Shown in pieces: positions 1,144-40,659 of a DNA stretch of 64,000 nucleotides. Position numbers and translations under genes: made by a program. Source of the DNA: an uncultured Candidatus Saccharibacteria bacterium (GTDB lineage: Bacteria > Patescibacteriota > Minisyncoccia > Phycocordibacterales > UBA9973); the NCBI GenBank assembly GCA_964496425.1, contig CAZBZO010000003.1:55728-119727 (forward strand), read 5' to 3'. How positions within the stretch are numbered: the stretch's first letter is position 1; every line of letters begins with the position of its first letter. A model generated the notes under the pieces. The model ran no database searches and had not been told where the DNA came from. It was given only the letters and a program-made list of their open reading frames with translations.

Positions 1144-4100
1144 TTAGGCCTTGAGCAGGATTTTGATTGTGAGGGATTCGATTTTTATGCTTTCTCCATC
1201 ATTTTCTGCAAATTCCACATCCTTGGCAAGTACTGTTTTTTTGAAGTCATCCATGAATAGTTCGATAAGCCCAAGAGCATTGTCTGAAATTGTGATTGAA
1301 ATAACATCCTTAGGAGTTAGCCCTTGTTTTTTGCGAAGATCTTGCACAGCGCGAACGAGCTCGCGATACTGACCTTCCTGCTTGAGTTCAGGGGTAATTT
1401 CTGTATTGATTTGTAATTCTGTACCACTTAATACTTCTTTAACATTCAGTTCATCTTTAATAAGACCATGGAATTGTTCCTCAAGAACAGGGGTACTTGG
1501 AATTGTAATACTCTGTAATGTTTGTCGCACTGGGATACCTGCCTTCTGGCGAAGCGCATTTCCCTGCTGGCAAAAACCAATTACAATTTCCATTTTTGTA
1601 ATAAGTTCTTCATTTTCCGCCTTTTTCATTTCTGGCCATTTTGCCAAATGCACACTCTCCTGGTCTCCTTCAATCTTTAATTTCTGCCACAAGTCTTCCG
1701 CAAAAAATGGTGCGAATGGTGCCATGACTTTTGCAAGATTTTTCAAAACAAAATACAAAGTCATTTTTGCCTCTTCCCCGTCCCTCGTCTCGCCGGAGCC
1801 TTGCGCGGAGGCGGATTTCAGTCGATCTCGTGAACGACGCAGATACCAGGTGGAAAGATCGTCAATAAATTCCCGTATGGCTCGCGCTGGCTCGAGCACT
1901 TTATATTCATCAAGTGAGCTCGTTGTAAGTGCGATAAGCTGGTCGAGTCGTGCCACAATCCACGCATCCAAAACGTTCTCGTGCAACTCGTAACTTGTAA
2001 CTCGTAACTCCAAACTTTTATCTCTGTATAGTTCATAAAATGCCACGACGTTGTCGAGTAAGGTGAAAATCTTTCCCTGAAGTTCCTTCACAGTTTTTTC
2101 ATCAAAGTTTTTTGATTCACCTGGCTGATTGACCGAATACATCCACATGCGAAGCGTATCGACACCGTATTTGTCGATCATAGCCCATGGCTCAATAATG
2201 TTACCTTGCGACTTGCTCATTTTTTTACCTTTGTCGTCGAGGATGTGGCCAAGACAAATCACATTCTTATACGCTTTGCCGCGACCAAGAAGCGTCCCAA
2301 CAGCATGCAGTGTGTAGAACCATCCACGTGTTTGGTCGATCGCTTCGCAAATATAGTCTGCCGGATATCCAGCGCCATCTACCCACTCCTTATTTTCGAA
2401 AGGATAATGATCCTGCGCGAGCGGCATCGCGCCACTATCAAACCAGACATCCATGACTTCTTTTACTCGACGATATTCCTTCTTCGTCACGCCGGAGCCA
2501 TCGGCAGAGGCGGGGCCGTCTTTCTCAAGCACTATCTCATCAATGTACGGCCTATGCGGATCAAATTCGTAGTTTTCATTGTGCGGGAGTGGAGCGAAAG
2601 AGAGCTCGCGGATTTCAGCGTTTAGTAAATCAGAATGTTCGTTATTCTTTTTTTCTAAATCCCTAAATGTAAATCCTGAAGCGACAAATTCGAGCGCTCG
2701 ACTCGATGCTGCATGACCGACAATGAGAATATTTTTATTCTGAAATTTTGATTCAATATCATAAATAAAATCTCCCTGCCGTTTTAGCACATCCGCAAAG
2801 CTTTCTCCCCCTGCCAATCTTTTTTCTGGAGAATACACATAATCGTGATTGTAATATTGTTTCACTGCCGAAAGTTCTTGACCTTCAAACTCATTACCGG
2901 GTTCAAGTTCTTGAAGCCGTGCATCATACATCACTTCATCCGAAGGAAAACCTAGTTTCTGACAAACAATTTCTGTACTTTGGCGGGCTCGCTCAAAGGG
3001 CGAAGAAAAGACAACATCAATCTTTTCCCCCAGTTTTGAAATGCTCTCCAAGACTTGTCCTTGTCCTTTTTCTGTCAAAACAGCGTGATGATGATATTCG
3101 TCGGTCCACATTTTACTTGTATTGTTACCCGCTTCTCCGTGCCGCATCACAAAATATTTATTGCCAGATTTCTTGGCATATTTTTTGAGCATGTCGTACG
3201 AATCCACGACCAATCGCTCTCCATCTTCAGCCACCCAAATCGGAAGCGGTGTACCCCAGTACCGCTCACGCGAAATCGCCCAGTCTTTGATGTCTTTCAA
3301 CCATTCACCAAAACGGCCTTGCTTGATGTAACTCGGCTCCCAATTAATTCCTTCGTTTGCTTGTATGAGCTCTTCACGAAGCGTGGACATGCCGATATAC
3401 CACGAATCTCGCGCGTAGTAGATAAGCGGTGTTTTACAACGCCAGCAATGCGGATATGAGTGCGTATAGAGTTCTTTTTTGAAAAATAAATTTTTTGCTG
3501 TGAGGTAGCGAATGATGTCGACGTCGAGCGTCGGTTTGCCGGCTTCATCTTTTTCTTTTACAAATCGTCCTTCGAATTCACCAGTGCCTTTTACAAATGT
3601 GCCGTCAGGATTGACCAGATGAAATTTCGGCAAGCCGACTTTGGTACCAAGCTCAAAGTCTTCTTGTCCATACATGACTGCCGTGTGCACAATACCGGTA
3701 CCGTCCGTCGTCGTCACGAAGTCTGCTGGATAGACTTTATATGCGTTTGCGAGTTTTGGATCACCGGCATCAAGCTCTTGTAAATATGGAAAAAGCGGTT
3801 CATATGAGAGGCCAATTAAATCTCTTCCTTTCATTTCCTTTTCCATTATTTTCTCTGAACCAATCTCCATCTTTTGGAAGAAATCTTTAGAAGCAATAAA
3901 TATATCGTCTGATATTTTAATAAGAGTAGGCTTTTCCGCATCAAAATCCTGGCGATAGTATTTAAAAGCTACATAATCAATATCTTCTCCGACCGCAAGT
4001 CCAACATTCCCAGGTAAAGTCCAAGGTGTTGTTGTCCACGCGAGCAAATAGGTATTTTCTTGTCCAACAATTTTAAATTTCGCAGTGATCGAGAGATCCT

Positions 4101-4758
4101 TATCATCTTGATAGCCTTGTGCAAGTTCGTGACTCGAAAGCGCTGTGCCACAGCGCGGACAGTAGGGCACGACTTTGTAATCTTTATAGAGCAATTTTCG
4201 CTCGTCCACTTTGGCGAGCACGTTCCAAAGCGATTCGATGTAATCGTTGTGATAGGTCACATATGGATGCTCTTCGTCCACCCAGTAGCCGATGCGCTTG
4301 GTAAAGTCTTGCCAGGCATCGACGTATTTCCAGACATTTTCGCGACATTTTTGATTGAAAGCGGCAATGCCGTACTCTTCAATTTCTTTTTTTGATTTGA
4401 GACCAAGCGTTTTCTCGACTTCAAGTTCTACCGGAAGTCCATGCGTATCCCAGCCACCCTTGCGACGCACATGAAAACCCTGCATAGTTTTGTAGCGTGG
4501 AATAATGTCTTTGAATGAGCGGGATTCGAGGTGGTGGATACCCGGCTTGCCGTTGGCAGTCGGCGGACCCTCATAAAAAACAAATTCCTTTCCGCCTTCA
4601 TTTTTGGCCACTGATTGTTCAAATATTTTTCCTTCTTCCCAAAACTCTAAAACGCTCTCTTCACGCTGCGCAAGTGGTGATTTGCTTGTCCCGTTAGAAG
4701 TAGGTTCTACTTGGGAACCGTTAGTTCTAACGGGATGATTTTTTTTATTTTCATCCAT
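1144..4758 (-). CDS. ileS: Isoleucine--tRNA ligase (type 2) carrying an inserted histidine-phosphatase (PGAM-like) domain
   Basis: 1204-aa ORF. Class I HIGH region PPTANGKPGIHH and KMSKS are present, together with the IleRS-specific YPHCWRCKTPLIY and WAISRERYWGTPLP motifs. Between the WAISRERYWG motif and DVWFDSG there is a roughly 270-aa segment, against about 80 aa in E. coli IleRS. The segment contains RHGEAGNN, SSPFERARQSTEI and IVGHAASSRAL, which are the hallmark motifs of the histidine phosphatase superfamily. Confidence 0.9.
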   Translation of the reverse strand: MDENKKNHPVRTNGSQVEPTSNGTSKSPLAQREESVLEFWEEGKIFEQSVAKNEGGKEFVFYEGPPTANGKPGIHHLESRSFKDIIPRYKTMQGFHVRRKGGWDTHGLPVELEVEKTLGLKSKKEIEEYGIAAFNQKCRENVWKYVDAWQDFTKRIGYWVDEEHPYVTYHNDYIESLWNVLAKVDERKLLYKDYKVVPYCPRCGTALSSHELAQGYQDDKDLSITAKFKIVGQENTYLLAWTTTPWTLPGNVGLAVGEDIDYVAFKYYRQDFDAEKPTLIKISDDIFIASKDFFQKMEIGSEKIMEKEMKGRDLIGLSYEPLFPYLQELDAGDPKLANAYKVYPADFVTTTDGTGIVHTAVMYGQEDFELGTKVGLPKFHLVNPDGTFVKGTGEFEGRFVKEKDEAGKPTLDVDIIRYLTAKNLFFKKELYTHSYPHCWRCKTPLIYYARDSWYIGMSTLREELIQANEGINWEPSYIKQGRFGEWLKDIKDWAISRERYWGTPLPIWVAEDGERLVVDSYDMLKKYAKKSGNKYFVMRHGEAGNNTSKMWTDEYHHHAVLTEKGQGQVLESISKLGEKIDVVFSSPFERARQSTEIVCQKLGFPSDEVMYDARLQELEPGNEFEGQELSAVKQYYNHDYVYSPEKRLAGGESFADVLKRQGDFIYDIESKFQNKNILIVGHAASSRALEFVASGFTFRDLEKKNNEHSDLLNAEIRELSFAPLPHNENYEFDPHRPYIDEIVLEKDGPASADGSGVTKKEYRRVKEVMDVWFDSGAMPLAQDHYPFENKEWVDGAGYPADYICEAIDQTRGWFYTLHAVGTLLGRGKAYKNVICLGHILDDKGKKMSKSQGNIIEPWAMIDKYGVDTLRMWMYSVNQPGESKNFDEKTVKELQGKIFTLLDNVVAFYELYRDKSLELRVTSYELHENVLDAWIVARLDQLIALTTSSLDEYKVLEPARAIREFIDDLSTWYLRRSRDRLKSASAQGSGETRDGEEAKMTLYFVLKNLAKVMAPFAPFFAEDLWQKLKIEGDQESVHLAKWPEMKKAENEELITKMEIVIGFCQQGNALRQKAGIPVRQTLQSITIPSTPVLEEQFHGLIKDELNVKEVLSGTELQINTEITPELKQEGQYRELVRAVQDLRKKQGLTPKDVISITISDNALGLIELFMDDFKKTVLAKDVEFAENDGESIKIESLTIKILLKA

Positions 4759-8899: not shown

Positions 8900-9098
8900 A
8901 TCGACTAAATTATTAGCAGATTTGCTAATAACCGATGTAGTCGAATTTACCAAATTGTTCCCAATACCAATCAGGTTTTGGAGGCAGTTCCACTTTTTCG
9001 GGTGGATTTTTTTTCTTTTTTTTCACAGATTTATTTTTTTATACAATACCATAAAAATAGAAAATAATCAACAGCCTGCAATTCTTACTCTTAAAGTC

Positions 9099-9521
9099 TT
9101 ATTTTCTTCCTGTGGAGCCAAATTGGCCCATACCGCGCGAAGAATCCGAAAGCTCGTCTACCTCTTCGAGCTCCACGATTTCTACTGGCATAATAAGAAG
9201 CTGAGCGACTTTGTCGCCTTTCTCCACCGCATAGGGCTGGTCTCCAAGATTCACCAGGTGCACATTGTATTCACCACGAAAGCCGGCATCAAAGGTACCA
9301 CCCATAGTGTGGAGTCCTGCTTTGGAAATACTACTTTTGTCTTTTACAAGCGCTGCATAACCTTCTGGAAATTCAAGCGCAAAGCCGCTCATAAAACGAT
9401 GGTGCTCGCCTGGCGGGATCACCACGTCTTCCATGGCGTACATATCGAGACCCACATCCCCTGGATGGGCGTAGCTCGGCATTTTCGTTTCAGAATATAA
9501 TTTTTTAATTTTGATTTTCAT
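9099..9521 (-). CDS. dut: dUTP diphosphatase
   Basis: 140 aa. PGDVGLDMYA, the HTMGGTFDAGFRGE motif and the C-terminal RGMGQFGSTG are conserved dUTPase motifs. Confidence 0.85.
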   Translation of the reverse strand: MKIKIKKLYSETKMPSYAHPGDVGLDMYAMEDVVIPPGEHHRFMSGFALEFPEGYAALVKDKSSISKAGLHTMGGTFDAGFRGEYNVHLVNLGDQPYAVEKGDKVAQLLIMPVEIVELEEVDELSDSSRGMGQFGSTGRK

Positions 9522-10005
9522 TGTTTAAAAAATAATTTGAATACATTCCAAAGTTTTTTAGAAATATGCTTGGATCTTTTTGATAAGCACTCAATAATTC
9601 TTCTGTGGTAAACCACCGTACTTCTTCGACTTCTTTCTTCTCGATTACAAGTAACGTATTCTTTGGTATCACGAGAGTAAACCATTGTACAAAATATTCG
9701 TGGGTAGTGGAACGACGCATCTTAGGCCCAAGTTTTGGTTTAATATTTTTTAACCCAATTTCTTCTTCTGCTTCTTTGATGATATTTGATTCATATGTTT
9801 CTCCTTCTTCGACTGTGCCTGCTACCGCTGGCCCCCACAGTCCAGGAAGTTTTCGTTTCAGATATGATCTTTGTGCAAGCAATATTTTGCCGGACGAATC
9901 AGTAATCCATAGGCCAGTCACACGCGTGATCTCTTTTTCGCCTCGTAGATCACGATCTTTATACTCTATGATTTCATCTTGTTCATTAACGATTGGAATT
10001 TTCAT
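9505..10005 (-). CDS. Nudix hydrolase
   Basis: GTVEEGETYESNIIKEAEEEIGL matches the Nudix box GX5EX7REUXEEXGU. It overlaps dut by 17 nt. Confidence 0.7.
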   Translation of the reverse strand: MKIPIVNEQDEIIEYKDRDLRGEKEITRVTGLWITDSSGKILLAQRSYLKRKLPGLWGPAVAGTVEEGETYESNIIKEAEEEIGLKNIKPKLGPKMRRSTTHEYFVQWFTLVIPKNTLLVIEKKEVEEVRWFTTEELLSAYQKDPSIFLKNFGMYSNYFLNNENQN

Positions 10006-10703
10006 TTGAATATCTTCTTTACTTTCTCGTAAATTTCTTCATGTATATCGTCTATCATGCGAAGTGCATTGTTGGGTGTACAGTCGATTTGAATATAATT
10101 CTTTTGTGTTTTCGAAAGCCAAAGCGCACTCTTACGAGAATTTTCCATATACGCAACATTGCCTTCCACAATATCTTTTTTCTTGCCAAGGTACGCCCGC
10201 TTGGTCTTTTTGTTGCGCTCTTTAATGAGATTTTTTATAAAGCTCATGGAAAGATTGAGGTAGAACACAGCTGCCGGACGCGGAATTTTGAATACTTCAT
10301 ATTCCATCTGATCGAGCCAGCGGATAAATTCTTGACGTTTCTTAGGGTTTCGGATTTTGCCGCCTTGATGGATTTGGTTCGCACTGGCATAACGATTGGC
10401 AAGTACGATATAGCCTTTTTTAAGCCATCCATTGATCTCTTCTTTGGATTCCCATCGATCAGCTGCATAGGCAAGCGAGGCGATTTTTGGATGAATCGTG
10501 ACCCAATTGTAGTAGCTTTCTGAAAGACACTCTCCGATGAATTTGCCAAAGAAGTTTTTGTAGTACTCGGGAAAGTCCACCACTTTCACTTTTTTGCCTT
10601 CTTTTAGGAGTCGCTTCCGCAAGAGCTCTACTTGAGTCGCCTTCCCGGAGCCATCCGTACCGTCTATGACAATGAGTTTGCCGCTTTTCATGCCCTTCAT
10701 CAT
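10002..10703 (-). CDS. tmk: Thymidylate (dTMP) kinase
   Basis: IVIDGTDGSGKATQVELLRKRL is the P-loop in dTMP kinase context. There is a 4-nt overlap with both neighbours. Confidence 0.8.
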   Translation of the reverse strand: MMKGMKSGKLIVIDGTDGSGKATQVELLRKRLLKEGKKVKVVDFPEYYKNFFGKFIGECLSESYYNWVTIHPKIASLAYAADRWESKEEINGWLKKGYIVLANRYASANQIHQGGKIRNPKKRQEFIRWLDQMEYEVFKIPRPAAVFYLNLSMSFIKNLIKERNKKTKRAYLGKKKDIVEGNVAYMENSRKSALWLSKTQKNYIQIDCTPNNALRMIDDIHEEIYEKVKKIFK

Positions 10704-12463: not shown

Positions 12464-12874
12464 CTAAAATTTATGGATGCTAATAAATTCCTCAAGAATT
12501 CGAGGTACGTCTTCAATGGTTTGATATTCACGCACGGTCACATGTGGACTCCCTGCAATCATGTTTGAGAGTTTGCGATCAGAGCCTGAACGGTAAAGAC
12601 ATAGTATGGGAATCTTGAGATGCTCTGCAGAAGCGATCTCATACCCAACCCCGAGACTTGGCGTCGTCACTTCAGCAATGAGTATATCAGTGGATTTGAG
12701 TTCTTCTCTATCTCTTTCATAGCTTTCTTGATCAGACATTATCTTGGTCTCTTCGCGAGGTCGGAGATGAAAAGAAATCACTTCACCATATTTTTGAATT
12801 TCACGAATGATCTCTTGGTAAAGCTCCTTATCATCACTTCCTCCTCGCACTGATCCAGAAAAATAGATTTTCAT
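12464..12874 (-). CDS. DNPH1/Rcl-like 2'-deoxynucleoside 5'-phosphate N-hydrolase (nucleoside 2-deoxyribosyltransferase fold)
   Basis: MKIYFSGSVRGG...ILIAEVTTPSLGVGYEIASA...IPILCLYRSGSDRKLSNMIAG aligns closely with mammalian Rcl/DNPH1 (YFCGSIRGG...VVVAEVTQPSLGVGYELG...RILCLFRPQSGRVLSAMIRG), including the catalytic Glu of PSLGVGYE. Confidence 0.7.
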   Translation of the reverse strand: MKIYFSGSVRGGSDDKELYQEIIREIQKYGEVISFHLRPREETKIMSDQESYERDREELKSTDILIAEVTTPSLGVGYEIASAEHLKIPILCLYRSGSDRKLSNMIAGSPHVTVREYQTIEDVPRILEEFISIHKF

Positions 12875-13979: not shown

Positions 13980-15236
13980 TTACACAAACTTCTCCGGTAT
14001 CGGATGACTTTCCGCCAGCGCTTTGATTTCAGCGCGAATGCGGTCTTTTACTCCGCTATCATCTTTATTACGCAAAGTTTCGATCAAGAGCTCCGCCACG
14101 CGAGCACAATCTGCTTCCATAAATCCTCGTGTGGTAATAGCTGGCGTGCCGAAGCGAATACCTGACGGATCAAGTGGCTTACGAGTGTCACCCGCAATAG
14201 AGTTCATATTGAGCGTAATGCCGACTTCATCGAGCACCGTCTGGGCTTCTTTGCCGGTCACACCGAGCGAGCCGAAAACATCAGCCAAGATCAAGTGATT
14301 GTCCGTGCCGCCGCCGATCATGCGCACGCCTTCTCGCTTGAGGACTTCTTCCATAGCTTTAGCGTTTTTGAGTATTTGCTTGGTATACGCTTGGTACGCT
14401 GGAGTCATAGCTTCACCAAAGGCCACGGCTTTAGCGGCAATGGTATGCATGTGCGGACCGCCTTGAATACCAGGAAAAATGGATTTGTCGATCTTCTTGG
14501 CAAGCTCTTCACTCTCACGGGTGAGTATCATGCCCCCACGTGGACCACGAAGTGTTTTGTGGGTCGTCGTGGTGATGATATCAAAACCATAATCAAATGG
14601 ATTCTCCAGTGCCTTACCTGCAATGAGTCCAGCGATATGCGCCATATCAGCCATGGTGATCGCCCCGACTTCGCGAGCAATCTCCACAAACTTTTTATAA
14701 TCGAGCGTGCGTGAGTACGCAGAAAATCCAGCGAGAATTATTTTTGGCTTCTTCTCGATAGCGACTTGTCGGAGGGCCTCGTAGTCAATCTCCCCTGTTT
14801 CCGGATCTTTCATTTTGTAAGTCACGAAGTTGTAAATCTTCGCCGGCAAAGTCATTGGATGACCATGGGTAAGGTGCCCACCATGAGAGAGATCCATACC
14901 AAGCACGGTATCGCCAGGAGAAAGAAGTGCGGCGTAGACTGCCAAGTTGGCCGGGGCACCGGAGTGCGGCTGGACATTGGCGTAGGCGCAATTAAAAAGT
15001 TTTTTCGCTCGCTCGATAGCAAGTGTCTCCACGATGTCAGTAAAATCCTGTCCGCCATAATAGCGCCGCCCTGGATACCCTTCGGAATATTTGTTGGTAA
15101 ACACCGAGCCGTTGGCTTCAAGGACGGCGCGCGATACGTAGTTTTCAGATGGAATGAGCTCAAGCCCTTCCCGCTCGCGCTTCTCTTCGCCTTCGATAGC
15201 CGCTAATACTTCAGGATCTTGTTGTAAATAATGCAT
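13980..15236 (-). CDS. glyA: Serine hydroxymethyltransferase
   Basis: 418 aa. The PLP-lysine region TTTTHKTLRGPRGG and the general SHMT signature are present. Confidence 0.95.
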   Translation of the reverse strand: MHYLQQDPEVLAAIEGEEKREREGLELIPSENYVSRAVLEANGSVFTNKYSEGYPGRRYYGGQDFTDIVETLAIERAKKLFNCAYANVQPHSGAPANLAVYAALLSPGDTVLGMDLSHGGHLTHGHPMTLPAKIYNFVTYKMKDPETGEIDYEALRQVAIEKKPKIILAGFSAYSRTLDYKKFVEIAREVGAITMADMAHIAGLIAGKALENPFDYGFDIITTTTHKTLRGPRGGMILTRESEELAKKIDKSIFPGIQGGPHMHTIAAKAVAFGEAMTPAYQAYTKQILKNAKAMEEVLKREGVRMIGGGTDNHLILADVFGSLGVTGKEAQTVLDEVGITLNMNSIAGDTRKPLDPSGIRFGTPAITTRGFMEADCARVAELLIETLRNKDDSGVKDRIRAEIKALAESHPIPEKFV

Positions 15237-15255: not shown

Positions 15256-15765
15256 TTAATCAAACTGATGCCCAACAATATTCTGTGGATCTTTAATATT
15301 GAAAAGTTTCTCGCTATTTTTAAGTAAAGTAGCGTCTGAGATACCTGCTTTCAACATTTTATCCCAACATGGCTTGCAACACCACCAATGTCCCCATAAA
15401 TACAGCCGAGCTCCTCGCATATCAGCTTTATGCTTTTCTCCATCACGCACGGCGCGAAACTCTCCATGGTTTTTATGAGATGCACAGCCAGGGCAAAGAA
15501 AATAAAGTTTTCCAGATGGAACACCGAACAATCGTCGTATGCAATATTTTTTATGAAGTGCGACGAGCCTTGGATCTCGAAGTGCTGATTGATTGGCTCC
15601 TTTGGCGACAACTTTCCCGTCTTTAACGATGATCGCCCCCGTGGAGATGCTTGCATCAGTCGAATACCTCCGCGCTTCTTCTTTGGCTTCTGCCATATAA
15701 GGATCAGAGATTTCCACATAGGCAATTTTTCCACTTTGTGGCATATAGGGATATTGGATTTCCAT
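15256..15765 (-). CDS. dCMP deaminase-like zinc deaminase (CDA fold) with an extra Cys-rich insertion
   Basis: ISTGAIIVKDGKVVAKGANQ...HGEFRAV...GARLYLWGHWWCCKPCWDKMLKAGI aligns with the dCMP deaminase H(A/C)E...PCxxC...AGI zinc site. An extra CIRRLFGVPSGKLYFLCPGC block is inserted. Confidence 0.6.
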   Translation of the reverse strand: MEIQYPYMPQSGKIAYVEISDPYMAEAKEEARRYSTDASISTGAIIVKDGKVVAKGANQSALRDPRLVALHKKYCIRRLFGVPSGKLYFLCPGCASHKNHGEFRAVRDGEKHKADMRGARLYLWGHWWCCKPCWDKMLKAGISDATLLKNSEKLFNIKDPQNIVGHQFD

Positions 15766-15804: not shown

Positions 15805-16656
15805 ATGACAAAGTTCGACCAGCTCTACCAGGATCTTCTGAGAAATATTATGGAAACTGGTATTGCAGAGCACAACGAACGCACGGGCCATGAGACCAAA
15901 GCTTTGCCGGGAGTCTCGTTTTCGACCGATATTGAGCGTGACGGTCTCCCTATTCTTACGCTTCGCAAAATCCCCGTCAAAAGTTTCATCGCTGAACAAA
16001 TCTGGTTTATATCTGGTGCCAAACGTCCAGATGAATTTTTAAATAAACACACTCAAATCTGGAACGACTTTATGGAAACTGATGGCACGATTGCGGCCGC
16101 ATACGGCTATCGGTGGCGACACCATTTCGGACGCGATCAACTCGGACAACTCATCGCTCACTTAAAAGCTGAGCCACATTCCCGCCAAGGCGTCATCATC
16201 ACCTGGGATCCAGCCGACGACGGACTCTATGGGGATGGGCTTACCGCCACATACAAAAAAAATGCACCGTGTCCGTTTGCATTTACCGTCAATATTATCG
16301 GCGGACGACTTCACATGATGAATATCGTGAGATCAAATGATGCCATACTCGGTCTGCCTTTTGATGTCGCTGGATTTTCAATCCTGCAATGTATTCTTGC
16401 TCAAAAGCTCGGCGTGACGCCAGGTATCTATACCCACGTCATTGCCAACGCGCATGTCTATGACAATCACTATGAAGCGGCGAAGGAAATCGTTGCACGA
16501 GACCATGATCATACGCCAATCATATTGCACTTGCCAGAACATTCATTTGAACGCGCAGAAAAAAAAGATGATGCGCTCCTTGAAGAAATACAAAATGATA
16601 TCGCCTCGCAATATCAACCACTTGAATCAATTAAAGGACTGAAGATAGTACTGTAA
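15805..16656 (+). CDS. Thymidylate synthase-family enzyme with Asp at the Asn177-equivalent position, predicted dCMP-specific methylase or hydroxymethylase
   Basis: The region after the catalytic Cys aligns with E. coli ThyA without gaps. APCPFAFTVNIIGGRLHMMNIVRSNDAILGLPFDVAGF lines up with [38 protein letters not shown], and ANAHVYDNH with GDTHLYSNH. R21, R166, S167 and D169 are conserved. N177 is replaced by D (codon 16363-16365) and H147 by P. Confidence 0.8.
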   Translation: MTKFDQLYQDLLRNIMETGIAEHNERTGHETKALPGVSFSTDIERDGLPILTLRKIPVKSFIAEQIWFISGAKRPDEFLNKHTQIWNDFMETDGTIAAAYGYRWRHHFGRDQLGQLIAHLKAEPHSRQGVIITWDPADDGLYGDGLTATYKKNAPCPFAFTVNIIGGRLHMMNIVRSNDAILGLPFDVAGFSILQCILAQKLGVTPGIYTHVIANAHVYDNHYEAAKEIVARDHDHTPIILHLPEHSFERAEKKDDALLEEIQNDIASQYQPLESIKGLKIVL

Positions 16657-16668
16657 GTACATTCTTAT

Positions 16669-17079
16669 ATGAATACTCGCCACGTCGTTGTGGGTCTCGT
16701 CACCCACAAAAAGAAGGTATTGATATTGAAACGATCTGAAAATGATCCGACATACCCTGATATGTGGGAATTTATTTCCTGGGTCTCCAGAGAAAAAGCC
16801 ACACCGAAAATAGATGCGGTAAAACGGCACATCTGCCATGCCACAGGACTTTCTTTATCGGAGCCATATGCAGGGAAAAAATTTCGGGTAGCAAGCGTGC
16901 ACAGCACGTTGTATATGCACCCGTTTATTTTTCAGGCCGATAGTGATGAGGTCACGCTACTGCCAGAAAAACACGAGAGTTATAGATGGGTGCGGCCGCA
17001 AGATATAGGTAAATATGCCTTAGTGCAAGATTTGGACAACTGCCTCAAACTTCTTAGTATTTTGCTTGAACACTGGTAA
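16669..17079 (+). CDS. Nudix-fold protein with a degenerate Nudix box
   Basis: 136 aa. The N-terminal VVVGLVTHKKKVLILKR and overall length are Nudix-like, but the box region REKATPKIDAVKRHICHATGL lacks the REUXEE glutamates. Confidence 0.4.
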   Translation: MNTRHVVVGLVTHKKKVLILKRSENDPTYPDMWEFISWVSREKATPKIDAVKRHICHATGLSLSEPYAGKKFRVASVHSTLYMHPFIFQADSDEVTLLPEKHESYRWVRPQDIGKYALVQDLDNCLKLLSILLEHW

Positions 17080-17088
17080 ACTAGAGGT

Positions 17089-17607
17089 ATGATACTTTCT
17101 TTTATTGCCGCTATCGGCAAAAACCACGAGCTCGGCTTCGGCAATCAGTTGCCGTGGCATTTGCCGGACGATCTGAAGCGTTTCAAAGACATCACCCGCG
17201 GACACACAGTGCTGATGGGCCGAAAAACGTATGATTCCATCGGGCGACCACTCCCCGACCGACGTAACATAATCATCACTCGGGATACGACCTTTGTGGC
17301 GCCGGGTATTGAAGTCGCACATTCACTTGATGAAGCACTCCGCCTCGCCTCGCTTGATAATGGAAAACGATTTGAAGAGGTACCAGAAGAGCCTGAAGTA
17401 TTTGTGATCGGCGGAGGACAAGTCTTCACCGAGGCTCTCCCTCGCGCCCAAAAAATGTATCTCTCTCATGTCGAGACTGCTCTCCCCGCTGATTCTTTTT
17501 TCCCAAAATTTGATCTAGGGGAGTGGAAAATCCTAAGCGAAGAATTTCATCCAAAAGACGAAAAACATCTCTACGATTTTACCTTTAAACAATATGAACG
17601 AAAATAA
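17089..17607 (+). CDS. folA: Dihydrofolate reductase
   Basis: MILSFIAAIGKNHELGFGNQLPWHLPDDLKRFKDITRGHTVLMGRKTYDSIG is the canonical DHFR N-terminus, and the VIGGGQVF motif is present. Confidence 0.85.
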   Translation: MILSFIAAIGKNHELGFGNQLPWHLPDDLKRFKDITRGHTVLMGRKTYDSIGRPLPDRRNIIITRDTTFVAPGIEVAHSLDEALRLASLDNGKRFEEVPEEPEVFVIGGGQVFTEALPRAQKMYLSHVETALPADSFFPKFDLGEWKILSEEFHPKDEKHLYDFTFKQYERK

Positions 17608-17610
17608 CTA

Positions 17611-18195
17611 TCAGAGTAGAGCGTTTGGGAAATCTGATTGAAACTGAGATGCTGTGGTAAATAAGAGTGCACGCATACCAAGTCCAGCTGCAGCAGCAAT
17701 ATTTGCCGGGTTGTCATCCGTAAAAAGAATTTCATTTGCCATAAAGCCAGTTTTCTCAATAAAATATTTAAAAAAGTTTGGATCAGGCTTGATCATGTGG
17801 ACATCTCCTGAGATAGCAGTAGTATCAAAGAGAGCGAGTTTCTCTTTTAAAACATTTTCAATTAAACTTCGAGGGGCATTCGTGAGCAGGCCAATCTGGT
17901 ATTTCTTTTTTAATTCTAAAATAAACGTTAACAATTCTTCGTTTAAAATAGCATACTCATACGAACGCTGCTTGAGTTCACTAGAATCTTGATTAACTTC
18001 TGCCGCGAGTCTGCCGACAAATGCATCCTCCGAAACATCTCCAATATCGAGATCATGCACAACAATTTTCATCCATTCATTATATTTATTTTCGTCTCCG
18101 GAAAATACATCGCGCAAAAAGCCACCATACATTGGTGGACACAACACCCCAAAGAAATCGAATGCAATCATTTTAACCATAGTGCTATGGATCAA
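17611..18195 (-). CDS. HAD-superfamily hydrolase, 5'-nucleotidase-like
   Basis: The N-terminal MIAFDFFGVL is HAD motif I-like. GLLTNAP and a C-terminal DD... motif are present. It resembles the small HAD nucleotidase/phosphatase family. Confidence 0.5.
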   Translation of the reverse strand: MIHSTMVKMIAFDFFGVLCPPMYGGFLRDVFSGDENKYNEWMKIVVHDLDIGDVSEDAFVGRLAAEVNQDSSELKQRSYEYAILNEELLTFILELKKKYQIGLLTNAPRSLIENVLKEKLALFDTTAISGDVHMIKPDPNFFKYFIEKTGFMANEILFTDDNPANIAAAAGLGMRALLFTTASQFQSDFPNALL

Positions 18196-18514
18196 GCGGG
18201 GTACGCATGCGGATAAATATGTCTTTACCGTCCGGTGATTTCTCCTTTTTGTATTTTCTATTTTTATTTATTTCAATCTTGCGCACCAATTCTTTCTCGA
18301 GGTCGTAGCCAAGTGTTTCGCACATACCAAGAAGAAAAATAGCAACGTCGGCGAATTCTTCCGCTACTCCAGGCTGGTTTTTACTGTATTTAGAAAATGC
18401 CTCGGAAAGCTCTTCGTGTGCGCGACAGAATTCAAAGGCAATATCACTGGTATTAAAGCCCTTTTCGAGCTTATTACGCATGACTTCCGCCTGTAAAACT
18501 TTAAGATCAATCAT
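18185..18514 (-). CDS. MazG-like all-alpha nucleoside triphosphate pyrophosphohydrolase
   Basis: 109 aa. AHEELSEAFSKY...GVAEEFADVAIFLLGM carries the EExxE...E..D metal-binding pattern of small MazG/dCTPase-like NTP-PPases. Confidence 0.55.
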   Translation of the reverse strand: MIDLKVLQAEVMRNKLEKGFNTSDIAFEFCRAHEELSEAFSKYSKNQPGVAEEFADVAIFLLGMCETLGYDLEKELVRKIEINKNRKYKKEKSPDGKDIFIRMRTPLDP

Positions 18515-18551: not shown

Positions 18552-19832
18552 CTAAAAACTCTTCCGATTCTTCAAAACATATTCCTCAGAATACCAACGC
18601 TTGCGAAGCTCGCCAATCAAATAGAAAGAGCCAGTGACCAAAATCAGATCACCCTTGGTAGCATTTTTCATCGCTTTATCCAGGGCCTGACCAGGATCAA
18701 GAAACATCTCAAGTGTCATAGTTTTCTTTTTGTATTTTTTTGAAAGCTGATAGAGTTCTCGTGGATTGGCCGCCTTGTGACCAGACCCGAGCTGAGTCAG
18801 ATAGACATGGTCTGCGAGAGACAAAAGTGGAGCAAGCGTATGAAGCGGATTTTTGCCTTGCTTCATACCGAAGACGAGGTGGAGTTTCTTGTATTTTAAT
18901 TTTTTTACATTCTCAACGGTTGTTAAAATCTTGGCTCTATTGTGGGCACCATCGAGCACAACAAGTGGAGACTTTTGCATCGTCTCAAATCGCCCCGGCA
19001 ACCGACACTTCTCTATCGCCTCCTTTACTTTTATTTCCGGTAAACCAATGTAGGCACAGATAGCTTCTACAAGCATTCGGTTGGCTTTCTTATACTCCTG
19101 AGTGACAGGGAGCGGCATATACTTGGCCCCGACTTTTTTCGCCAAGGTCACCAAATAGCTCCGGATCGCAGGACGAGTTTCGGTTGTAAAAAATGCACTT
19201 CCCCTTTTTAGAATACCAGCTTTGTTCCAAGCAATATTTTTGAGCGTGGGCCCGAGAAGTTCAATGTGGTCATAATCGATATTGGTGATCGCTGTCACTT
19301 GAGGCTTTGCGATAATATTTGTCGAGTCATACCTGCCACCACAGCCGACTTCAAGTACAACATGCTCGCATTTCATATCGCGAAAGTAGAGGAGCGCAAT
19401 CGCAGTCTTAAGCTCGGTATATGACGGGCCGCCATACGGCGCGTCACGATAGGCTTTATCAACCAACGGTTTGCATTGCTCCATATAGGCTGCAAAAGCC
19501 CCCGGTGCAATATAGGTATCATTTACTTTTATATTTTCAATCGCGGAGGAAACATAGGGCGACGTATAGAGGCCAACTTTTTTGCCGCTTCTCCATAAGG
19601 CTTCCGCTACTGTAGCTGAAATCGTACCTTTGCCTGACGTACCGGTAATATGAATATATTTCATTCCCCGCTCCGGATGACCGAGAAGATCTAGAAAATA
19701 TTCCATCCGCTTGAGATAGAACGTCGTGTGTTGGCGATCACGCATATAATCGCGGTTGGCGACATTTGCCAGACTCGTGAGATACTCGTGAGCCTTGTGA
19801 TATGCTGTGAAATTTTTATCCTTTACGTTCAT
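18552..19832 (-). CDS. folC: Folylpolyglutamate synthase / dihydrofolate synthase (Mur ligase family)
   Basis: IHITGTSGKGTISATVAEAL is the Mur-ligase P-loop, and the FolC-type central and C-terminal domains are present. Confidence 0.8.
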   Translation of the reverse strand: MNVKDKNFTAYHKAHEYLTSLANVANRDYMRDRQHTTFYLKRMEYFLDLLGHPERGMKYIHITGTSGKGTISATVAEALWRSGKKVGLYTSPYVSSAIENIKVNDTYIAPGAFAAYMEQCKPLVDKAYRDAPYGGPSYTELKTAIALLYFRDMKCEHVVLEVGCGGRYDSTNIIAKPQVTAITNIDYDHIELLGPTLKNIAWNKAGILKRGSAFFTTETRPAIRSYLVTLAKKVGAKYMPLPVTQEYKKANRMLVEAICAYIGLPEIKVKEAIEKCRLPGRFETMQKSPLVVLDGAHNRAKILTTVENVKKLKYKKLHLVFGMKQGKNPLHTLAPLLSLADHVYLTQLGSGHKAANPRELYQLSKKYKKKTMTLEMFLDPGQALDKAMKNATKGDLILVTGSFYLIGELRKRWYSEEYVLKNRKSF

Positions 19833-37005: not shown

Positions 37006-38004
37006 TTACTTATCCTCCTCTTTCTTTGTGTGCCCGTGGGCATCGACTTCGTATGCAGTGTTCTGGGCTTCAAAGAAGTTCACAAGTTCATAGACATCGG
37101 TGGCGCCGGCCATCCATTTTGCTGGATTGGTAGCATTGTAATGCTTCGGCATACCGAGCTCTTCCAAGCGGCGATCTGCTACGTATTTCACATATTGATT
37201 TACATAGTCAGCATTGAGGCCTAAAATGCCGTTTGGAAAGAGGTCTTTGTTGTAGGCGACTTCAAGATCGACACCTTCCACAACAATCGTCCGGATTTCT
37301 TCAGCAAATTCTGGCGTCAACAAATCAGGATTCTCTTCAAGAATATGCATGATGAGATTCATGCCAAACTTCAAGTGGAGTGACTCGTCGCGAATAACCC
37401 AGTTGATCATACTCGCAAAGTTTCGAAGTTTATTGCGCTGGCGGAACGACAAGACCACCATGAAGCCCGAATAGAACCAAACACCTTCCATGACAATATT
37501 GGTTGCTACGAGATTGCGAATAAAATCTTTTTTCCCTTGTGTCGTTTCAATATCTAGCGTGTCTTCGGTCATGCGGCGCAAATATTTTGTGATGAAGGCC
37601 TCTTTTTTTACCATTGAATCAGTCTGCGTGTGCACTTCATATATCGTATCGCGACCCATAGGAAATGTTTCAAGCACGTACTCAAAGGCTACACAGTGGT
37701 TGGCCTCTTCCCACATTTGCTTCGCAAGATACAAATGGCATTCAGGAGACTTAATATACGGATAGACACCGAGCGCAAGAGAGCGGTTCACAATAAGCTC
37801 TGCCGGATTGAAAAATGACATGAGGAATTTTACGGCATGACGTTCATCTTCCGTCATATCGTTCCAGTCTTTCAAATCTTCCCCGAGCGGGATCTCATGA
37901 GGGAACCATGTGTTGCGCACAGCTTGGTTGTAGAGTTCATAGGCCCACTTATAGTGCATGGGATGCAGGGATGTATCTTCTGGTGTAGCTTTTCCGATCA
38001 ACAT
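37006..38004 (-). CDS. nrdB: Ribonucleoside-diphosphate reductase beta (small) subunit, class I
   Basis: Ferritin-like di-iron sites (EANHCVAFEYVLETF, RDESLHLKFG) and the tyrosyl-radical region. It is adjacent to nrdA. Confidence 0.9.
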   Translation of the reverse strand: MLIGKATPEDTSLHPMHYKWAYELYNQAVRNTWFPHEIPLGEDLKDWNDMTEDERHAVKFLMSFFNPAELIVNRSLALGVYPYIKSPECHLYLAKQMWEEANHCVAFEYVLETFPMGRDTIYEVHTQTDSMVKKEAFITKYLRRMTEDTLDIETTQGKKDFIRNLVATNIVMEGVWFYSGFMVVLSFRQRNKLRNFASMINWVIRDESLHLKFGMNLIMHILEENPDLLTPEFAEEIRTIVVEGVDLEVAYNKDLFPNGILGLNADYVNQYVKYVADRRLEELGMPKHYNATNPAKWMAGATDVYELVNFFEAQNTAYEVDAHGHTKKEEDK

Positions 38005-38094
38005 AATAGTAGTTAGTAGTTAGTAGTAAATAGTTAGTAGGACGACATAGTTAGTGTATTTTTCTACTTACTACTAACTACTTTCTACTAACTG
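38005..38094. repeat. Inverted repeat of TAGTTAGTAG-type units (long imperfect hairpin) in the nrdA-nrdB intergenic spacer
   Basis: AGTTAGTAGTAAATAGTTAGTAG (left arm) pairs with CTACTAACTACTTTCTACTAACT (right arm), giving an approximately 23-bp imperfect stem around a roughly 25-nt loop. The arms are built from direct repeats of (T)AGTTAGTAG. Confidence 0.6.
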
Positions 38095-40659
38095 TTATTG
38101 GCATCCTTCACACAACAATGCATCTTGCGGATCCTCCGGTCCATGAACAACAAGTGTTGGTTTTTCCTTTTTTAATACGAGAGGAGGAGTCTCAATAGCA
38201 ATCTCAGGCATTGCCGCAACTACAGGAGTAGGTTCCACATATGGAGCTTCGGCAACCTCCTCTTTCTTTTCTTTGGTGCTAAATACTGCTGAAAATCCTT
38301 TATGTCCTTGCGCTTCGGATTTGTTGACTCGCGTCGTAGATTGCTCCGCATTGTGCTTCGGCTTCATGTGAAGATAGTACGTCGTCTTCAATCCCTTCTC
38401 CCACGCTGTCGAATAAATCTTCATTATTTCATCAACATCCCGGATTTCAAGATACATATTGCGCGAAATAGCTTGGTCTACCCATTTTTGCGCTCGAGCT
38501 GCAACTTCCACGAAAGCATATGGTGAAGTAGAAAATGATGTCTTATACATTGCTTTGATGTGCTCGGGGATTTCAGGAATATCGGCAAGGTCGCCATGCT
38601 GTTCAAGAATGGTCTCGCGATGCTTGTCCCAAAGATCAAGCGCGCGCAAATCGTTCACCAGGTTTGGATTGATCTCAAGATATTTTCCGGAAATTTTATT
38701 TCGAGAAAACATTTGAGCAAAGCGCGGATCAATGCCTGGCGACGTACCGGCGACGAGACCGATGTTCGCATTTGGAGCGATAGCAAGCACCGTAGCATTG
38801 CGAACACCTTTACGTACTTTTTTACGAAGTGCATCCCAATCCACTTGCGGAATCACTTCAAGACTTTCGGTCGGAATCGTCACCGCGAGTCCACGCTCAG
38901 ATTCAAGTTTTTTAAATGTATCCATCGGCACCATACCTTTACTCCAGCCGGAACCCTCGAAATTGTCATAACTACCACGTTCTGCAGCTAAATTGGCCGA
39001 CTCATCGATCGCCATGTAGCTAATGAATTCAAATACTTTGTCCGATAGATCAAACGCTTCTTTGTCTTCATATGAAAACCCGAGTTGTTCAATAGCGTCG
39101 GCAAAACCCATAAGTCCGAGTCCCACAGCACGGTTTTCAGAGTCGGCCTTGATCGCTTCTGCGATCGGGAGCTTGTTGACGTCGATCAAATTGTCGAGCT
39201 GGCGGATCGCTAAGCGTACGCTCTCTTCAAGACGCATCCAGTCGATCTGGCGGGCCACGATATGGCGCGGTAAGTTGATGGAAACCAAATTACAGACTGC
39301 CACATTGTCTTTATTTTGCGGCAAAGTGACTTCGGTACAGAGGTTGGAGGCATGGATCGTCCCGGTGTTGTTATTGAGTGCACGGAGATTGATGGTATCT
39401 TTCCAGGTTAGCCATGGATGCGATGTGGTCTCAAGGGAAACAAGGATATTCTTATACTGCTGGCGAGCTGGCATTTTCTTCCACATTTTCATATCGCCTG
39501 CTTCGGCCATTTGGGTATATTCCCCATAGCGCTTGGAAAAAGCTTTACCGTAGAGCTCTATCAAATCTGGTGTTTCTTTCGGATCAAACAAGTACCAATC
39601 ACTATCTTCTTTGACGCGCTTCATAAATTCGTCCGAAAGATAGACTGCGGTATCGGCGGTACGAGTACGACGATAGTCATCCCCTGCGTTTTGCTTCAGA
39701 TCGAGAAAATCTTGGAAATCAATATGCCAGTTTTCCATATAGAAACACAGAGCACCTTTTTTCTTGCCCCCGCGCTGCACGGCACGCACGGCCGAGTCAA
39801 TAATATGAAGAAATGGCACTGGGCCAGACGAGACAGTGTTGTTTGATTTGAGTACCGATCCATTGGCGCGAAGTTTAGTGACCGCAAGGCCGATGCCGCC
39901 GGTAGCCTTCGAGAGCATCAGCACATCCTTCACAGTTTTTCCAATATGATCCATATCGTCTTCGACTTGCATCAAGAAACAGTTGGAAAGCGAAGGACGA
40001 GTTGTCGCGGCACCAATGTTGGTCGAACCGGCAGAGAGATATTCAAGTTTGCTCATTTTGTCATAAAACTTTTTCGCCCAATCAGTCGGATTTTTTTCTT
40101 TCAAGGACATACCCATAGCAACTCGCATCCAAAAATATTGTGGTGTCTCGAGTGGTTTCTGGCTCGCATCTTTAATAAGATAGCGATCCATCATTGTTGA
40201 GATACCAGAATACTTATAGAGCTCATCGCGTTCGATCTTGAGCGCTTTGGAAAGTTCGTCGAGATCGAAAACTTTCGCAAGCTTTGGATCAAGAAGTCCA
40301 AGTTCGATACCGAGACGAATATAATGAGGGAAATGTCCGCGGTGAAGCGTGGTGAGCTCTTCTTTGGTGTCGAATCCGCCGATGACTTTCTTGTAGAGCG
40401 TTTTCAAAAGGAGACGTGTGGCAATTTTATCGTAATCGAGATCATACTGCGCGTTTTGAAGAGCCGCATTGATCGTCGCTTGATCCATTTCCTCCGTCGT
40501 AATCCCGTCATAGACCGTGAGCTCGGTCTCGGAAGCGATTTGGGTCACCTTACCGATCGGATCAGAGAGACCATAACATGCACGTTCGATCGAACGATTG
40601 ATTCGATCGGCGTTAAAAGGCTCTCGGGTTCCGTCTCGTTTGGTGATTGAAATGCTCAT
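38095..40659 (-). CDS. nrdA: Ribonucleoside-diphosphate reductase alpha (large) subunit, class I, with an ATP-cone
   Basis: 854 aa. The N-terminal ATP-cone is ISITKRDGTREPFNADRINRSIERA. The catalytic NLCTE thiyl-radical cysteine region and the C-terminal Cys pair (CEGC) are present. Confidence 0.9.
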   Translation of the reverse strand: MSISITKRDGTREPFNADRINRSIERACYGLSDPIGKVTQIASETELTVYDGITTEEMDQATINAALQNAQYDLDYDKIATRLLLKTLYKKVIGGFDTKEELTTLHRGHFPHYIRLGIELGLLDPKLAKVFDLDELSKALKIERDELYKYSGISTMMDRYLIKDASQKPLETPQYFWMRVAMGMSLKEKNPTDWAKKFYDKMSKLEYLSAGSTNIGAATTRPSLSNCFLMQVEDDMDHIGKTVKDVLMLSKATGGIGLAVTKLRANGSVLKSNNTVSSGPVPFLHIIDSAVRAVQRGGKKKGALCFYMENWHIDFQDFLDLKQNAGDDYRRTRTADTAVYLSDEFMKRVKEDSDWYLFDPKETPDLIELYGKAFSKRYGEYTQMAEAGDMKMWKKMPARQQYKNILVSLETTSHPWLTWKDTINLRALNNNTGTIHASNLCTEVTLPQNKDNVAVCNLVSINLPRHIVARQIDWMRLEESVRLAIRQLDNLIDVNKLPIAEAIKADSENRAVGLGLMGFADAIEQLGFSYEDKEAFDLSDKVFEFISYMAIDESANLAAERGSYDNFEGSGWSKGMVPMDTFKKLESERGLAVTIPTESLEVIPQVDWDALRKKVRKGVRNATVLAIAPNANIGLVAGTSPGIDPRFAQMFSRNKISGKYLEINPNLVNDLRALDLWDKHRETILEQHGDLADIPEIPEHIKAMYKTSFSTSPYAFVEVAARAQKWVDQAISRNMYLEIRDVDEIMKIYSTAWEKGLKTTYYLHMKPKHNAEQSTTRVNKSEAQGHKGFSAVFSTKEKKEEVAEAPYVEPTPVVAAMPEIAIETPPLVLKKEKPTLVVHGPEDPQDALLCEGCQ

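Follow-up and report, generated by a model that had tools for sequence, protein, structure and literature searches.

In this study, we analyzed a stretch of 64,000 nucleotides from an uncultured Candidatus Saccharibacteria bacterium (contig CAZBZO010000003.1, positions 55,728 to 119,727 of the forward strand, assembly GCA_964496425.1), hereafter named the window, and in particular an open reading frame (ORF) of the thymidylate synthase (TS) family located at its positions 15805-16656. With moderate confidence, we consider that this gene encodes a deoxycytidylate (dCMP) C5-methyltransferase and not a dUMP-methylating ThyA, and that the enzyme would perform the first committed step in making thymidylate by way of 5-methyl-dCMP, as a housekeeping pathway. 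The accepted view is that cells of every kind obtain thymidylate by methylation of dUMP, with either ThyA or ThyX. Four observations made directly on the sequences are at the origin of this proposal: an active-site signature, the membership of a particular clade, a conserved synteny and a fold.

The translated protein matches the Pfam family PF00303 (Thymidylat_synt) over residues 7-254, with an E-value of 7.8e-56. A preliminary description of this DNA, made from the letters alone, had read the ORF as a ThyA-family enzyme in which Asp replaces the Asn at position 177 of E. coli ThyA, the residue that discriminates uracil from cytosine, and its hand alignment turned out to be in register. Upon comparison with solved TS structures by phmmer (3ix6, 6auj, 4h0r, and 1tis for T4 td), no gap interrupted the alignment from the catalytic Cys until after the HxYxNH motif, and 'APCPFAF' stood opposite 'PPCHCLF', and RSNDAILGLPFDVAGF opposite RSADIFLGVPFNIASY. 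Cys156 corresponds to C146 of the E. coli enzyme, Pro157 to H147, Arg176, Ser177 and Asp179 to R166, S167 and D169, and Asp187 to N177; the LGLPF and H-Y-N-H motifs are kept as well. The codons at stake are TGT CCG for Cys-Pro (16270-16275) and GAT for Asp187 (16363-16365). The PF00303 hidden Markov model (HMM), the pairwise alignments and the multiple alignments all placed Asp, not Asn, opposite N177, and Pro opposite H147, also when the sequences of solved TS and of dCMP hydroxymethylase (dCH) were included. In particular, a MAFFT alignment with E. coli ThyA and T4 dCH (the sequence used is identical to that of PDB entries 1B49 and 1B5E) put Asp187 opposite Asp179 of the T4 enzyme, the equivalence that had been given in the preliminary description. 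In E. coli numbering, R21, E58, W80, Y94, R126, C146, R166, S167, D169, H207 and Y209 are retained, and five positions differ from canonical ThyA: L143 is replaced by Asn (Asn153), H147 by Pro, W83 by Phe, R127 by Gln and N177 by Asp. The protein also has a C-terminal tail, in which '...IKGLKIVL' was aligned by MAFFT with '...IKAPVAI' of E. coli.

The AlphaFold2 model of the protein (pLDDT 89.6, pTM 0.90) had canonical TS structures as its top Foldseek matches, with TM scores of 0.75-0.82. All 50 top matches listed were canonical TS, and T4 dCH was absent among the matches listed. Pfam, phmmer against the PDB, MAFFT and AlphaFold2/Foldseek were concordant, which rules out an off-register alignment. 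Four independent contigs from other samples carry a gene identical to this one, GAT codon included, so that an error of sequencing or assembly at this codon is ruled out. A chance substitution is ruled out too, Asp being found in 80 of 80 orthologues from different species.

The significance of an Asp at this position comes from work on canonical enzymes and on phages. The N177D change in E. coli TS, or N229D in that of L. casei, turns the enzyme into a dCMP methylase (Liu & Santi 1992 and Hardy & Nalivaika 1992, as cited in PMC8670742). The two residues that best separate the TS homologues of phage contigs with cytosine-modified DNA from those of unmodified contigs are 177 and 147 (eLife, PMC8670742), which upholds the cytosine-directed reading drawn from the Asn177Asp and His147Pro replacements. 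In vivo, the TS of phage Xp12 and 5 of 7 Asp-type TS homologues from metagenomes (MetaGPA) make 5-methyl-deoxycytidine (5mdC) (Yang et al., bioRxiv 10.1101/2024.12.05.627091). In the same study, Asp-type phage TS genes were found in cis with genes of the dCMP-deaminase family, some of whose products prefer 5-methylcytosine (5mC), and it was proposed that such phages obtain dTTP by deamination of 5-methyl-dCTP. A product code was also published recently (2026 NAR, PMC13326640), in which N177 stands for dUMP and D177 for dCMP as the substrate, L143 for a methyl and D/E143 for a hydroxymethyl product, and D169N for 5-hydroxy-dCMP.

We then considered how widespread the Asp-type signature is. A word-index search gave more than 2000 relatives of the TS-like protein, and an exhaustive phmmer search of 1.84 billion cluster representatives gave 14049 at E ≤ 1e-3. 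The best 150 of the representatives at 50% identity were aligned together with reference sequences, for a table of signatures and a tree. Cys-Pro followed by Asp at 177 (C-P-D) was present in 103 rows of this table; another 23 rows had C-[V/L/I/Q/T/C/W]-D, and 21 showed the canonical C-H-N. Every one of the approximately 85 nearest representatives has Asp177, mostly together with Pro147 and Phe83, and often with Gln or His in place of Arg127; the canonical L143/H147/N177 combination first appears near rank 88, at an E-value of about 1e-35. The neighbour-joining tree, a rough distance tree drawn without bootstrap, separates two clades, one with the canonical L143/H147/N177 and a large one with N143/P147/D177. 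The window protein lies inside the latter, which also holds the verified dCMP methylases. Homologues at 57-69% identity come from metagenome-assembled genomes (MAGs) labelled Paceibacterota, Parcubacteria, Kaiserbacteria, Taylorbacteria, Colwellbacteria, Adlerbacteria, Nomurabacteria and other Patescibacteria, and public sources label them 'thymidylate synthase'. Orthologues and synteny were studied on 80 retrieved Patescibacteria species, a single genome being taken for each GTDB species. N-x-P-C-[P/L] and Asp177 are found in all 80 orthologues, and the residues equivalent to Asn153 (143) and Asp179 (D169) of the window protein are invariant in the family.

Among phages, the best matches were siphophages of the genera Bosavirus (Xp12-like), Pamexvirus (PaMx74-like), Steinhofvirus and Xiamenvirus, with 33-38% identity and E-values between 1e-44 and 1e-50. 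The TS of Xp12 itself is 35% identical (2e-51), to be compared with 7e-36 for the best solved canonical TS, the two scores coming from different methods. The window is cellular and not viral. It encodes IleRS, ArgRS, L11, NusG, a class I ribonucleotide reductase (RNR), GlmS, MscL and endonuclease V, and a phage or prophage origin is ruled out by the aminoacyl-tRNA synthetase, ribosomal protein, NusG and RNR genes, together with the synteny in 80 MAG species. Scans of the window for Rfam families and tRNAs gave no match.

Within the clade of Asp-type TS, several gene fusions were encountered: P0148 (L090:10001-11302), P0150, P0163 and P0125 (L091:10001-11401). They are of the types deaminase+TS (on a phage-like contig that also carries RNR and a DCD gene), PRA-PH+TS and HNH+TS. 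P0125, 466 aa long, has an N-terminal domain of 190 aa and is encoded on a cellular contig, beside an aminoacyl-tRNA synthetase gene and MurD; by hhalign, this domain had no similarity to a deaminase.

The genes surrounding the TS-like gene are listed in Table 1. The serine hydroxymethyltransferase (SHMT) and dihydrofolate reductase (DHFR) genes announced in the preliminary description are indeed there, and the neighbourhood is largely conserved. Across the 80 loci, a deaminase gene is found within 3 kb of the TS gene in 79 species, and is divergent from it in 77; in 56 species, a DHFR gene follows TS on its strand within 3 kb, SHMT is within this distance of TS in 44, and the thymidylate-kinase-like gene (Tmk) in 28. 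Most often, the order is SHMT< DEAM< TS> DHFR> or SHMT< Tmk< DEAM< TS> DHFR>. By comparison, conservation across the 80 loci does not extend to the MazG, NUDIX and HAD genes of the window.

The deaminase of the window is 162-169 aa long, and its family has invariant H99xE101 and C129/C132 residues, as well as a second cluster H70/C74/C90/C93. When compared with dCMP deaminases (ComEB, DCTD, T4 Cd), the window deaminase has the CDA fold with the HxE and CxxC zinc motifs, and its nearest structures are dCMP deaminases. It scores far below the curated ComEB model TIGR02571 of NCBIfam (22.9 against 219 bits), and its best PDB sequence matches are RibD and TadA, at E-values of 1e-3 or above. It is predicted to convert 5-methyl-dCMP, or its triphosphate, into the corresponding thymidine nucleotide. 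Orthology with the deaminases found in cis in phages is unsupported (blastp E-value 0.02).

A further conserved element is a gene following TS. Clustering of neighbouring ORFs revealed a Dcd-like gene encoding 210-217 aa, placed after TS on the same strand in 74 of the 80 loci, usually at a distance of 2-40 nt, so that the usual order becomes SHMT< Tmk< deaminase< TS> Dcd-like> DHFR>. The protein matches Pfam DCD (8e-33) and scores above the NCBIfam 'dCTP deaminase' cut-off, but Pro occupies the position of the catalytic Glu138 of E. coli Dcd in 71 of 71 full-length copies. As the catalytic Glu is Pro in all of them, the Dcd-like protein is probably a nucleotide pyrophosphatase that does not deaminate. 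An example is found at L047:10860-11504 and others are spread across L005-L083; annotation pipelines probably mis-name them. The subclade of the window has no Dcd-like gene. The slot is filled by a NUDIX gene in the window, and by an ADK-like kinase and a CYTH triphosphatase in the related locus L093, and it is empty in L092. A MazG-like gene of 109 aa stands near DHFR, on the opposite strand, in the window, L092 and L093. Altogether, three unrelated pyrophosphatase families adjoin Asp-type TS genes. The enzyme of the slot is unlikely to be just a dUTPase, since the window has a separate canonical one, which already takes care of dUTP. The simplest function common to all would be to supply dCMP from dCTP, or to bring 5-methyl-dCTP back to the monophosphate, and the NUDIX protein of the window is predicted to be a (d)CTP or 5-methyl-dCTP pyrophosphatase. 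In phage T4, gp56 plays such a dCMP-supplying role for gp42.

Table 1. Genes of the window related to the proposed pathway, with their positions in the window.
Feature	Position	Strand	Remarks
TS-family protein with dCMP-type active site	15805-16656	+	283 aa, ATG to TAA; predicted dCMP C5-methyltransferase, giving 5-methyl-dCMP and dihydrofolate
CDA-fold zinc deaminase	15256-15765	-	divergent from TS; PF00383 4e-9, MafB19-deam; public gene calls start at Met8, 15744
NUDIX hydrolase	16669-17079	+	12 nt after TS stop; PF00293/PF14815; weak matches to NudI/pyrimidine dNTP diphosphatase
DHFR	17089-17607	+	9 nt after NUDIX; PF00186 1.3e-55; would recycle the dihydrofolate of reductive methylation
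SHMT	13980-15236	-	PF00464 1.6e-157; regenerates 5,10-methylene-tetrahydrofolate
Thymidylate-kinase-like deoxynucleoside monophosphate (dNMP) kinase	10002-10703	-	PF02223 8.6e-18; about 5 kb away in the window, adjoins the deaminase in many relatives
MazG-like all-alpha nucleotide pyrophosphohydrolase	18185-18514	-	109 aa; PF12643 6.8e-6; next to DHFR in the window subclade
HAD-IA hydrolase	17611-18195	-	PF00702/PF13419; NCBIfam HAD-IA, weak YjjG/pyrimidine nucleotidase matches; 0/80 loci
Folylpolyglutamate synthase-like Mur ligase (FolC)	18552-19832	-	PF02875 and PF08245; FOL3_C on identical gene; folate cofactor handling
Canonical trimeric dUTPase (Dut)	9099-9521	-	140 aa; PF00692 4.3e-26; NF001862 114 bits, cut-off 103
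Class I ribonucleotide reductase	37006-40659	-	NrdB 37006-38004 (PF00268 2e-79), NrdA 38095-40659 (PF02867 1e-164); source of dCDP/dCTP

Some of these genes call for separate remarks. The Tmk-like protein falls under both NCBIfam dTMP kinase cut-offs (66.8 against 83.25, and 90.6 against 193), and its orthologue in L093 has a weak dNK match; its specificity may be broader than dTMP. Opposite to the dUTPase gene, which is the real one, the + strand ORF 8922-9500 (192 aa, no family match) is spurious. The dUTPase belongs to a run of genes encoding a NUDIX protein, the Tmk-like protein, a DUF817 protein, another NUDIX protein, a cytidylyltransferase-like protein, a nucleoside 2-deoxyribosyltransferase and an SDR protein. 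A nucleoside 2-deoxyribosyltransferase (12464-12874, - strand) and an HD/YfbR-like 5'-deoxynucleotidase (40953-41612, - strand), encoded in the region of the proposed dTMP module, hint at an active salvage or recycling of deoxynucleosides, and possibly at the disposal of dUMP. In Xp12, the product QNN97215 of the gene upstream of the dCMP methylase (L094:1731-2504) is annotated as a HAD/haloacid dehalogenase and is actually of the PRA-PH/MazG type (PF01503, 6.6e-15). Its counterparts in phages DoCa10 and phiH2 (L001:3219-3992 and L002:3204-4001) have the same HAD-type annotation, and resemble the Xp12 copy by eye.

Elsewhere in the window, IleRS (1144-4758, - strand, 1204 aa) carries an inserted histidine-phosphatase domain (His_Phos_1, residues 535-700, 2e-23) that separates the two halves of its class I catalytic domain, and a similar IleRS of 1172 aa with an RHGE motif is encoded at L072:1541-5059. 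This small bacterial genome also encodes two Kelch-repeat beta-propeller proteins (55143-57161 and 63061-63978, both on the - strand), in the vicinity of glycosyltransferase and GH130 genes.

Put together, these genes outline the following pathway. RNR would provide dCDP and dCTP, and a nucleotide pyrophosphatase would convert dCTP into dCMP: the NUDIX protein, the MazG-like protein or both in the window, and in most relatives the Dcd-like protein devoid of the deaminase glutamate. In the TS-like enzyme, Asp187 would bind dCMP and Cys156 would attack its C6, and methylene-tetrahydrofolate would give both the carbon and the hydride, yielding 5-methyl-dCMP and dihydrofolate. DHFR and SHMT, along with FolC, would maintain the folate cycle and its cofactor. 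The divergent zinc deaminase would turn 5-methyl-dCMP (or the triphosphate) into dTMP (or dTTP), and the Tmk-like kinase would take dTMP on to dTDP. The substrate and the product of the TS-like enzyme, the preference of the deaminase for a methylated base, the level of phosphorylation of the nucleotide that it deaminates and the roles of the pyrophosphatases are what we infer from the genes. A route from dCMP to 5-methyl-dCMP to dTMP was among the options of the preliminary description; with a deaminase adjoining TS in almost all species, plus Tmk, SHMT and DHFR, it appears as the best-supported one. The deaminase, the pyrophosphatase slot and the precedent in phages are additions to that description.

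Several points weigh against this pathway. The set of genes (deaminase, dUTPase superfamily, TS, DHFR, Tmk) is exactly what the textbook route from dCMP or dUTP to dUMP and then to dTMP predicts, and the canonical Dut of the window implies that dUMP is made in this cell. Two of the seven Asp-type phage TS assayed in vivo did not yield 5mdC (bioRxiv 10.1101/2024.12.05.627091). Residue 143 is Asn, and the published code covers only Leu for methyl and Asp or Glu for hydroxymethyl products; since Asn is omitted from it, the assignment of a methyl product rests on Xp12 sharing Asn143. Concerning the deaminase, its similarity to those encoded in cis in phages is only remote (the blastp E-value of 0.02 given above), the selectivity for 5mC was reported to be polyphyletic and unpredictable from sequence, and the sole characterized phage deaminase, mSCD-B5, acts on triphosphates and not on 5mdCMP (bioRxiv 10.1101/2024.12.05.627091).

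The alternative that best survives, although we hold it to be rather unlikely, is the textbook one: the enzyme with Asp177 would still be a dUMP-methylating TS, its Asp being protonated or the site otherwise compensated, or would act on both dUMP and dCMP, the deaminase would be an ordinary dCMP deaminase, and the Dcd-like protein and Dut would add to the dUMP pool. The composition of the module and the presence of Dut speak for it, as do the public naming of the protein and its NCBIfam score with the 'thymidylate synthase' model TIGR03284 (125.7, cut-off 108.35). Moreover, this organism cannot do without dTMP, and no other TS is in view. No second TS or ThyX was found with Pfam among the scanned ORFs of at least 100 aa in the 64-kb window, where the RHRx7S motif of ThyX matched only in short or off-frame stretches, and no second PF00303 gene was found within 10 kb of TS in any of the 80 loci; these negative results also count in favour of the 5-methyl-dCMP pathway. 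Since gene content fits both routes, they are told apart only by the active-site residues, the clade membership and the argument on pyrophosphatases, and all three speak against the textbook one. Asn177 is the established discriminator between uracil and cytosine, and its change to Asp switches canonical enzymes to dCMP. Four more active-site differences, N143, P147, F83 and Q127, also occur in the Xp12 enzyme, a verified dCMP methylase. The protein belongs to the Asp clade and not to the canonical one, and misses all the PRK01827 ThyA equivalog models of NCBIfam, with less than half of their cut-offs (for instance 156 against 327 bits). Finally, the Dcd-like slot coexists with canonical Dut and is swapped for NUDIX, MazG or CYTH proteins, which fits a substrate other than dUTP.

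A second alternative, which we regard as very unlikely, is that the module introduces 5mC into the chromosome of its own host at the level of the nucleotide pool, cytosine being partly or wholly replaced, and that the deaminase diverts part of the 5-methyl-dCTP to dTTP. The module does match those of phages of the Xp12 and PaMx74 types, whose DNA contains 5mC in place of C. The one cis-deaminase that is characterized works on the triphosphate, the Tmk-like kinase, being below the dTMP-kinase cut-offs, could be a broader dNMP kinase, and the dNTP pyrophosphatases present could deplete dCTP. However, the conserved core comprises a gene of the thymidylate kinase family and no dedicated replication machinery. 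A full-text literature search found no 5mC introduced at the pool level in any cellular genome. The variability of the MazG, NUDIX and HAD genes among the 80 loci also speaks against it, and the GC content of the window (43.9%) is unremarkable.

The least probable alternative, to which we give hardly any credit, is another C5 product (5-hydroxymethyl-dCMP or 5-hydroxy-dCMP) or CMP as the substrate, as in MilA; Asp177 is indeed common to T4 dCH, MilA and the 5-hydroxy-dCMP synthases, and residue 143 is a polar Asn instead of the canonical Leu, but none of the respective signatures was found. Enzymes of the T4 dCH type have Asp or Glu three residues before the Cys and Ser or Thr two residues before Tyr, and lack a C-terminal tail (PMC6400193). 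At the first of these positions, the window protein has Asn153, an invariant residue of the family, and the D145N mutant of T4 dCH is inactive for hydroxymethylation, Asp or Glu being required (PMC6400193). At the second, it has Ala98-Ala99-Tyr100, the position being A, S or V in the family, and it does have a tail. The D169N replacement of the 5-hydroxy-dCMP synthases (RB69/DLP3 type, PMC13326640) is missing, Asp179 being kept. Ser at 167 and Arg at 126 are of the deoxy type, if equated with Ala176 and Lys133 of MilA by an inferred mapping. The Foldseek matches listed, in which T4 dCH did not appear, go in the same direction. Conversely, the features compatible with a methylase are all present, namely a non-acidic residue 143, the conserved Asp169 and a C-terminal tail compatible with hydride transfer. 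Only an enzyme releasing dihydrofolate would call for DHFR, so that the presence of DHFR in the operon points to such a release, whereas a hydroxymethylase releases tetrahydrofolate (THF). Methylation is therefore the likely chemistry and our best call, given the co-transcribed DHFR, the absence of the hydroxymethylase and 5-hydroxylase signatures and the Asn143 common with the methyl-making enzyme of Xp12. The preliminary description had left the choice between a methylase and a hydroxymethylase; the first term is the one to retain.

If a dCMP C5-methyltransferase followed by a deaminase makes thymidylate in this large bacterial radiation, it would constitute a third cellular route to dTMP, in which dUMP is avoided as an intermediate. 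Metabolic reconstructions of the Candidate Phyla Radiation (CPR), where these genes are now automatically annotated as thymidylate synthase, dCMP deaminase and dCTP deaminase, would have to change. An evolutionary link would also be suggested between phage modules for 5mC-containing DNA and a cellular housekeeping pathway, and if 5-methyl-dCTP reached the replisome, a phage-style DNA chemistry would exist in a free-standing cellular lineage. In addition, many deaminases with a possible preference for 5mC, an activity wanted for methylome sequencing, would be available in this lineage. Our full-text literature search found no Asp-type TS or 5-methyl-dCMP pathway linked to Patescibacteria or to any cellular lineage; one CPR paper treats thyA and folA conventionally, and the description of Minisyncoccus is silent on thymidylate.

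The enzyme class and the pairing of an Asp-type TS with a deaminase are already known from phages, and thymidylate synthesis via a 5-methyl-dC nucleotide has so far been proposed only for phages. The closest known system is that of Xp12-type phages. The TS of Xp12 and of the window have the same fold, a C-terminal tail and an identical N143/P147/D169/D177/F83 signature, D177 and P147 being also found in phages DoCa10, phiH2 and 83-24. The Xp12 module (PRA-PH/MazG pyrophosphatase, TS, deaminase, DHFR) has the same four functions as the window locus, and deamination of a 5-methyl-dC nucleotide is the proposed source of thymidylate in both. The Patescibacteria module differs in being carried by a cellular genome, kept across 80 species, and set among the genes for SHMT, Tmk and FolC in what looks like a housekeeping pathway. 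Its deaminase is of a different, remotely related subfamily and is divergently transcribed, and its pyrophosphatase is a Dcd-like protein with the E138P replacement, or a NUDIX protein, in place of the PRA-PH protein. Also, 5mC is known to be present in the DNA of Xp12-type phages, whereas the Patescibacteria module is known here from its genes.

Compared to canonical ThyA (EC 2.1.1.45; E. coli, L. casei), the window protein has the same PF00303 fold (TM 0.8), catalytic and binding residues, tail, linkage to DHFR in an operon and predicted reductive methylation. It differs by its separate clade and by Asp, Pro, Asn, Phe and Gln in place of Asn177, His147, Leu143, Trp83 and Arg127, respectively. 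With T4 gp42 (dCH; 1B5E, 6A9B), it shares the Asp at 177 (Asp179 of gp42), the RSND motif and dCMP as the expected substrate. Their identity is about 22%, the window gene is linked to DHFR, and the window protein lacks the distinctive features of gp42: Asp145 before the Cys, Ser94-x-Tyr96, Lys at R21, Val at W83, absence of a tail and release of THF. Lastly, in the engineered N177D and N229D enzymes, a single Asp likewise confers dCMP methylation. Unlike them, the natural Asp clade co-varies at positions 143, 147, 83 and 127, and is presumably tuned to the reaction on cytosine.

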